This document shows positions 1 through 640 of a stretch of DNA of 640 bases, in pieces. The notes beneath the pieces were generated by a model that saw only the letters and a list, made by a program, of their open reading frames with translations, was not told the origin of the DNA and ran no database searches. Location of the stretch: the sequence record AF056257.1. One strand, 5' to 3'. Source of the DNA: a phage. Position numbers and translations under genes: made by a program. Numbering within the stretch: the stretch's first letter is position 1; every line of letters begins with the position of its first letter.

Positions 1-160
1 CNTTGGCCATTTTTTACGGNAATAANCAGGGAATNTTGTTATNTTCNATTGNNGNATGATTCNGNCCNAGTATTNGCCTNTTAAAGTGGGTATGGTGTGT
101 AGTGGTTTAGCAGTTTATCTGGTTTAAATTCAAATATATGTTTCTGTGGTANGNTTAAAN
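1..160. other. Low-quality read start: 17 ambiguous base calls (N) at 2, 20, 26, 35, 43, 47, 52, 53, 55, 63, 65, 68, 75, 80, 152, 154, 160
   Basis: Direct observation of N characters. The clustering at the 5' end is typical of a single-pass read, so frame and feature calls here are unreliable. Confidence 0.9.
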
Positions 161-214
161 CCAACATTTCTAGGTAAAGTAGATCCAAACCAGTATAACC
201 TGGTTTCCATCTTG
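56..214 (+). CDS. Possible N-terminal part of the same gene in frame 2: candidate ATG 56-58, hydrophobic anchor-like stretch (K)VGMVCSGLAVYLV (83-124), in-frame TAA 125-127, then IQIYVSVV?L?PTFLGKVDPNQYNLVSIL (128-214)
   Basis: Frame 2 translation shows a 13-residue hydrophobic run followed about 15 residues later by an 'F-L-G-K-V' segment, the layout expected for the N-terminal membrane anchor and 'R-F-G-K' start of an SPFH domain. The region contains many N calls and an in-frame stop, so the exact start and frame are unreliable. Confidence 0.2.
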
Positions 215-275
215 TAAACCATTTGATTTTTCGATACTTTTAGTAACAAAAGATATTGCTGTAAAATTAGATAAA
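183..275 (+). CDS. Probable upstream continuation of the same SPFH protein, read in frame 3 (IQTSITWFPSCKPFDFSILLVTKDIAVKLDK); joins the frame-2 core only if about one base is missing near the A-run at 272-276
   Basis: Frame 3 is open from 183 (after TAG 180-182) to TGA 318-320. 'CKPFDFS' lies at the distance from the SQD block expected for the conserved 'W-K-P-x-F-I-D' segment of HflK / 'QKPIIFD' of prohibitin (about 25-27 residues). Codon usage is the same as the core. The frame relationship to the core is inferred, not observed. Confidence 0.4.
187..206 (+). repeat. Perfect 7-bp inverted repeat AAACCAG / CTGGTTT with a 6-nt loop (TATAAC), potential hairpin inside the coding region
   Basis: Direct reading: 187-193 aaaccag is the reverse complement of 200-206 ctggttt. 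It coincides with the place where the upstream frame-2 ORF (ends TAA 215-217) and the frame-3 ORF (from 183) overlap. Confidence 0.45.
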
Positions 276-640
276 TTCAGGTTCCTAGCCAGGATAAGTT
301 TAAATCCACTGTTGACCTGACTGTTATGTTACAATTTGATGGTTCTAAGGCACCGATTAACCGTATTAACGCAGGCACCCAGGATCAAGCATTAGACAAA
401 TATGTAACTGAAAAATTACTGTCCACTATTCGTGAGTTCGGTAAGTCTGTTCCCTAAAGCACAAGATTTGTTTGATGCTAAAATCCAGGCTCAATTACAA
501 ACCGCAATTCAACAGGAAGTTGAAGAGTATGCACGCCCTTATGGTTACACAGTTAAGCAAGTGTTCCTTCAGGATATTACATTGCCACCGGTAATTATGG
601 AACAGGTACAGAATACCAAAGTTCGTGAAGAACAAGTTAA
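275..640 (+). CDS. SPFH/band-7 domain protein (stomatin/prohibitin/HflK-HflC superfamily), internal fragment, 3' partial; frame changes from frame 2 (275-454) to frame 3 (459-640) near 452-458
   Basis: Seen in sequence: frame 2 is open 275-454 (ends TAA 455-457) and frame 3 is open 408-640, with the two translations given in the summary. From recalled family knowledge: SQDKFKSTVDLTVMLQF matches the spacing of the stomatin 'TKD..V.VD..V.YRV' block, LLSTIREFG resembles the 'LR.V.G' motif, and GYTVKQVFLQDITLPP resembles stomatin 'GIKVERVEIKDVKLP'. Spacing between blocks fits HflK/stomatin. Codon usage is consistent across both segments. Confidence 0.75.
449..458 (+). other. Frame discontinuity (+1) within the SPFH gene at GTT-CCC-TAA-A; removing one base from the C-run/T gives ...REFGKSVPKAQDLFDAK...
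   Basis: Frame 2 terminates at TAA 455-457 while frame 3 is open 408-640 and carries the conserved C-terminal SPFH block. Both frames are open across 408-454, so the shift lies in this interval; the homopolymer CCC (452-454) is the likeliest site. Confidence 0.6.

Follow-up and report, generated by a model that had tools for sequence, protein, structure and literature searches.

The window, by which we mean the whole 640-nucleotide stretch of DNA analysed (AF056257.1), carries part of one protein-coding gene on the plus strand, with an apparent frame change at positions 449-458. When the reading frames on the two sides of this site were joined, the translation matched the PF01145 profile (Band_7/SPFH) with 58.6 bits (E = 1.1e-15), above the gathering cut-off of 23.6 bits, and covered positions 17-164 of the 176 in the profile. 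The gene encodes an SPFH/Band 7 domain protein.

A search with window 100-640 matched 629 phage records. The top matches, at 92-93% identity, were all Tequintavirus, namely the T5-like phages Shivani, H8, SHSML-45, VAH1, BF23 and DT57C. The nucleotide identity of the window to Tequintavirus records ranged from 92 to 97%, and over 280-640 the nearest phage record was 97.2% identical. In Tequintavirus the matched coding sequence is 948 nt long (315 codons) and is annotated as a band 7/SPFH protein, a transmembrane protein or a 'lipoprotein'; the RefSeq label for the SPFH protein is also 'lipoprotein'. It is named 'ORF trn 1.1' in BF23 (CAE53207.1), and its counterparts are gp69 in Shivani (AJA73516.1) and VAH1_00090 in VAH1. 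In the Tequintavirus records the coding sequence directly follows tRNA-Arg, within the region of tRNA genes; this synteny was seen in the relatives, and the garbled start of the window resembles the 3' end of tRNA-Arg only faintly. By nucleotide comparison, the window gene is best assigned as the SPFH gene of a T5-like phage (Demerecviridae, Tequintavirus) and the orthologue of BF23 ORF trn 1.1. The joined translation equals the Shivani protein over residues 93-210; the SPFH genes of the T5-like phages differ from the window in having neither its extra C (452-454) nor its 20 upstream indels. Complete E. coli genomes gave no match to the window, and a prophage or host gene was ruled out on that basis. 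In the literature on SPFH and bacteriophage T5 only incidental mentions were found, and no functional study of the SPFH protein.

The flagged site, GTTCCCTAAA (449-458, plus strand), is read as GTT CCC TAA A. In the mechanical list of open reading frames, the TAA at 455-457 closes a frame 2 ORF (326-457, plus strand) that ends in ...STIREFGKSVP, and from 453 to the end of the window frame 3 gives PKAQDLFDAKIQAQLQTAIQQEVEEYARPYGYTVKQVFLQDITLPPVIMEQVQNTKVREEQV (PKAQDLFDAKIQAQLQ...REEQV). SPFH/Band 7 coding follows frame 2 up to the TAA and then frame 3 from CCT AAA GCA. The frame 2 part (VPSQDKF...EFGKSVP; 284-454, plus strand) encodes a protein sequence identical to Shivani residues 93-149, and that of the frame 3 part (PKAQDLF...VREEQV; 453-638, plus strand) is identical to Shivani and to one of the homologues found by protein search (P0006). 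That search, carried out with the joined translation, returned eight proteins in all, six of which (P0001-P0006) span the site. The joined frames read ...EFGKSVPKAQDLF..., a stretch that is unbroken in these six of the eight homologues, and ...EFGKSVPKAQDL... likewise is continuous in P0001-P0006.

Because there is homology on both sides, the break was counted as real: there is a +1 frame change in the sequence as given. The CCC-TAA string by itself is too short to carry statistical weight. An earlier sequence-only reading of the window had drawn attention to this site and had proposed an extra called base, a pseudogene lesion or a recoding site as its origin, with the first of these ranked highest. 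Its description was correct on every point: where the site lies, that it reads CCC-TAA-A, and that the protein goes on in the +1 frame.

The site of the frame break in related phages

In a MAFFT alignment of the window with six relatives, the window reads CTGTTCCCTAAAG where Shivani and H8 read CTGTTCCTAAAG; BF23, VAH1 and two other contigs carry CTGTACCTAAAG at the site. The CCC run of the window (452-454, plus strand) is one base longer in this alignment than the CC of Shivani and H8, the closest relatives, and the extra C is the single indel in window 276-640. The consensus of the relatives over the flagged site is GTW CCN AAA.

A further 43 loci were obtained from IMG/VR, and the spacing between the conserved flanks was scored wherever both were identifiable, which was the case for 47 related loci. 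Eight bases separated the flanks in all 47 of these loci, compared to nine in the window. The commonest form of the site was GTACCTAA (24 loci), followed by GTTCCTAA (nine), GTACCAAA (four) and GTACCGAA (three); GTTCCGAA and GTTCCAAA were each found twice, and GTGCCTAA, GTGCCAAA and GTATCTAA once each. The proline codon was CCT, CCA or CCG, with TCT in one case, and drifts at its third position as an ordinary sense codon does.

The comparison of orthologous loci was the check that the sequence-only reading had proposed, and it gave the outcome named there as a refutation of recoding: the frame runs on without a break, and the CCC-TAA motif, present in none of the 47 loci, is not conserved. When window 420-490 was compared with 476 phage records, none matched at 100%; the best matches covered 70 of the 71 bases with one gap. 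An exact search for the extra-C string, with degenerate positions allowed, gave no match in viral_contigs, metagenome_contigs or genome_contigs, and the string that is one base shorter was found. The gene also was examined by tblastn in 60 phage genomes, taken at even intervals from the 687 ranked phage matches, and was found in one uninterrupted piece in 59 of them. At least 80% of the SPFH protein was covered in one place in 672 of the 687 records.

Error profile of the read and origin of the extra base

The window contains 17 N, all of which lie within positions 2-160. Pairwise alignments to three different relatives gave an identical list of 21 indel events, comprising 19 deletions and one insertion at 71-275 and the insertion at 450-452. 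The remark in the sequence-only reading that the read has other frame breaks was thereby borne out, with 20 further events relative to the relatives. Counted in 80-base bins from position 81, the indels numbered 12, 4, 2, 0, 1, 0 and 0; two more fell in the aligned part of window 1-80, for a first-bin total of 14.

The first 68 bases (1-68, plus strand) are a barely alignable, low-quality read start with 12 N. A faint likeness to the 3' end of tRNA-Arg, the gene upstream (TTACGG...), can be seen in this segment, from which about 50 bases of the spacer and the start of the gene are missing; what is left probably comprises remnants of the end of tRNA-Arg, of the intergenic spacer and of the gene start. 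It is followed by an error-dense part (69-276, plus strand), in which the N-terminal SPFH sequence is spread across three frames and which holds 20 private indels (19 deletions and one insertion) and five N. Many of the deletions lie outside homopolymers, for example TGGTG[C]TGTAG and ATATA[C]TATTG, which points to a poorly resolved gel or capillary stretch rather than to homopolymer-specific chemistry.

In window 165-640 there were seven private indels compared to one private substitution. Two inserted bases apart, position 197 is the only one in this region with a base found in no relative. The A of the window here (GTATAACC) is replaced by T in each of the 38 aligned relatives (GTATTACC); it lies within the error-dense part and is probably a miscall. 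Outside the inserted base, every base of 276-640 occurs in at least one relative. The protein encoded by 284-640 is identical to Shivani residues 93-210, and the nucleotide differences are all synonymous, as they are relative to the relatives throughout 453-638; each synonymous difference in 284-640 was found in one relative or another. Natural gene decay leaves mostly substitutions, many of them non-synonymous, and base-calling failure leaves mostly indels and N. On this comparison, the excess of private indels over private substitutions is a signature of error and not of gene decay.

The extra C at 452-454 is most probably a base-calling artefact and not a recoding signal, with a probability that we put at about 0.9. 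The features by which such an artefact would be recognised were found together: the change is private, it converts CC to CCC in a homopolymer, and the read in which it occurs contains 17 N and a further 20 private indels. The DNA at the site would in truth read GTT CCT AAA (Val-Pro-Lys), that is, GTTCCTAAAG, in which the CC was over-called as CCC. The over-called C would produce both the apparent TAA stop and the apparent +1 frame change, and the SPFH gene would be an ordinary, continuous ORF of 315 codons with no recoding. An extra called base in the homopolymer was also the explanation ranked first by the sequence-only reading, and it is supported by the finding that all 47 loci have one base fewer and a variable codon. 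The privacy of the extra base, the many other private indels and the perfect conservation of both flanks were observed directly; we infer that the base originated in base calling and not in the DNA.

The extra C lies 177 bases past the last other indel, in the otherwise accurate part of the read (276-640). Judged by this accuracy, the read seems to be of good quality around the site, and a real mutation keeps some weight. One miscall per 365 bases is ordinary for a single-pass Sanger read.

With a base-calling artefact as the preferred explanation, the frame break should be dropped as a candidate for recoding, and the window is best treated as a low-quality read of a well-conserved SPFH gene of T5-like phages. 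Candidates of this kind can be filtered cheaply and decisively by asking whether orthologues share the extra base and the slip motif, and by setting the private indels of the read against its private substitutions.

Real insertion, recoding and decay as alternatives

Of the other explanations, the one that survives best is that the extra C is a real and very recent one-base insertion (CC to CCC, giving GTTCCCTAAAG) in the phage isolate or in the cloned fragment. The SPFH protein would then be truncated at residue 149 of 315, and a spontaneous, non-programmed slip of tRNA-Pro from CCC to CCU at the UAA might partly rescue the wild-type protein. The insertion does sit in an otherwise clean part of the read, and the SPFH gene, which is split in the deposited genome of Salmonella phage bastian and looks fragmented in Klebsiella phage CPRSA, seems to be dispensable at least sometimes. 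We nevertheless regard a real insertion as unlikely. It was seen in a single read only, alongside 20 other indels that are likewise private, and there is no sign of decay downstream of it, where 62 codons agree with those of the relatives and the changes are synonymous only. The prior also is low, the gene being intact in nearly all finished genomes (59 of the 60 sampled; 672 of 687 records), and a single miscall in 365 bases falls within the error rate generally expected of Sanger reads.

A slip at such a site has a precedent. In E. coli, CCC before a slowly decoded codon (rpoB CCC-AGG-C) gave 5% +1 frameshifting with no flanking elements (PMC7022156), which makes a +1 slip at CCC before a stop codon plausible. 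As in the window, the rpoB site combines a P-site CCC with a slow A-site codon, both the result of the insertion of one C, and the slip restores the frame. For rpoB, however, the extra C was confirmed and mass spectrometry detected the trans-frame peptide (PMC7022156), whereas the insertion in the window comes from one read and is most probably absent from the DNA. If the extra C were real, CCC-UAA-A could be self-suppressing, with a percent-level +1 slip regenerating exactly the wild-type SPFH protein; we consider it very improbable that both hold. Were it so, a seemingly broken accessory gene would stay partly functional, as a natural phage counterpart of rpoB CCC-AGG-C.

The recoding option raised by the sequence-only reading, in its strict sense, is that CCC-UAA-A is an evolved programmed +1 site, of the kind found in prfB or in Listeria phage PSA, that sets the ratio of a 149-aa truncated to a full-length SPFH protein. 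A P-site CCC can indeed re-pair as CCU with UAA in the A site, and the +1 frame encodes the conserved C-terminal part of the protein, so that a shift would yield precisely the wild-type protein. Against this, the extra base is conserved in none of the 47 orthologous loci and none of the 476 phage records, and the proline codon wobbles freely. A Shine-Dalgarno-like stimulator also is absent, as the sequence-only reading had remarked: the best upstream pairing with the anti-Shine-Dalgarno sequence, GGUAAG, has a duplex energy of -3.0 kcal/mol and the wrong spacing, ending 6 nt before the CCC. This value is unremarkable within the SPFH gene, where the strongest internal site reaches -4.4 kcal/mol. 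The predicted downstream fold was no better than that of shuffled sequences (455-560, 106 nt; MFE of -15.7 kcal/mol compared to a shuffle mean of -17.1, z = +0.45), and no Rfam family, frameshift elements included, matched the window at E ≤ 1. UAA is a strong terminator that is recognised by both release factors, and because it is read by both, feedback logic like that of prfB does not apply. With all 47 orthologues uninterrupted and the extra-C string in no collection searched, programmed frameshifting was left unsupported, in effect refuted by the orthologues, and has, in our estimate, next to no probability.

Comparison with known +1 sites led to the same assessment. The site in prfB (release factor 2), CUU UGA C, likewise places a stop codon in the A site next to a P-site codon able to re-pair, and the functional protein is read on in the +1 frame. 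It differs in having an upstream Shine-Dalgarno-like element, whereas the window site has no such stimulator 3 nt upstream, and in its stop codon, which is the RF2-specific UGA and not, as in the window, a UAA that offers no autoregulatory logic. Unlike sites of the prfB type, the window site is not conserved among orthologues. It is not a member of this class, and only the two-codon core is alike. Listeria phage PSA, in which +1 frameshifts in the capsid and tail genes are said to have been described by Zimmer and colleagues in Mol Microbiol in 2003, reportedly also uses a proline codon beside a stop codon in a phage gene for a +1 shift. The PSA sites are said to lie at the 3' ends of structural genes, to yield C-terminally extended products and to have downstream structure; the window site, in contrast, lacks both conservation and such structure, and it lies in the middle of a gene for an accessory membrane protein.

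The proposal that the whole gene copy is a decayed pseudogene, with the break at 452 as one of many real lesions, draws on the 21 frame-disturbing indels that span 570 bases of the window, and was rejected as having a negligible chance of being correct: the indels crowd the region of the N calls and become sparser further along the read, private indels outnumber private substitutions 7:1 in 165-640, and the amino acid sequence of 284-640 is identical to that of intact homologues, where real decay would have left many non-synonymous substitutions. The pseudogene option of the sequence-only reading accordingly found no support for the gene as a whole, both flanks of the break having 100% protein identity to relatives.

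Other SPFH gene copies and the ancestry of the window

The SPFH gene of Salmonella phage bastian (MT074459.1; L052:1201-2144) is split into ORFs of 128 and 178 aa. The split results from the loss of 1 nt at GGTA[C]CCAGG, which reads GGTACTAGG and is homologous to window positions of approximately 378-384; the lesion is genuine, or else the assembly is in error at this further run of C. In Klebsiella phage CPRSA (OM971648.1 118383-119300, 198 kb), the tblastn match to the SPFH protein was in four pieces, which lie under three annotated 'hypothetical proteins' and in two places in the record, and the gene looks fragmented. The SPFH homologue on a metagenome contig (ERZ27277035 k141_115839; L053:905-1303) is similar only to about residue 115, beyond which it diverges and overlaps a metallophosphatase-like gene on the opposite strand. 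This contig may represent a recombination breakpoint or a truncated copy.

The relationship of the window to its relatives changes along its length. Relative to Shivani and H8 there were no substitutions in 401-560 and five in 561-640; relative to BF23 there were 12 in 401-560 and none in 561-640. The window is therefore a mosaic, Shivani-like over 401-560 and BF23-like over 561-640. This pattern suggests either that T5-like phages have recombined within the gene or that the lineage is an unsampled one. Exact strings of 117 nt and 65 nt that contain this Shivani-like and BF23-like mix had no match in viral_contigs, metagenome_contigs or genome_contigs.

A fragment of the T5-like coliphage protein, 100% identical to the translation of the window, was found encoded on a contig in an assembly labelled Enterococcus faecalis (L001; GCA_046614055.1, JBKKEN010000281.1, 327 bp), where it is probably phage or cross-sample contamination. 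The SPFH protein also is encoded, at 60-78% amino acid identity, by T4-like phages of Klebsiella, Enterobacter, Cronobacter, Citrobacter and Aeromonas (160-180 kb) and, at the same level of identity, by Cronobacter phages of approximately 90 kb. Judged from these similarities, the accessory gene is common to unrelated phage families.
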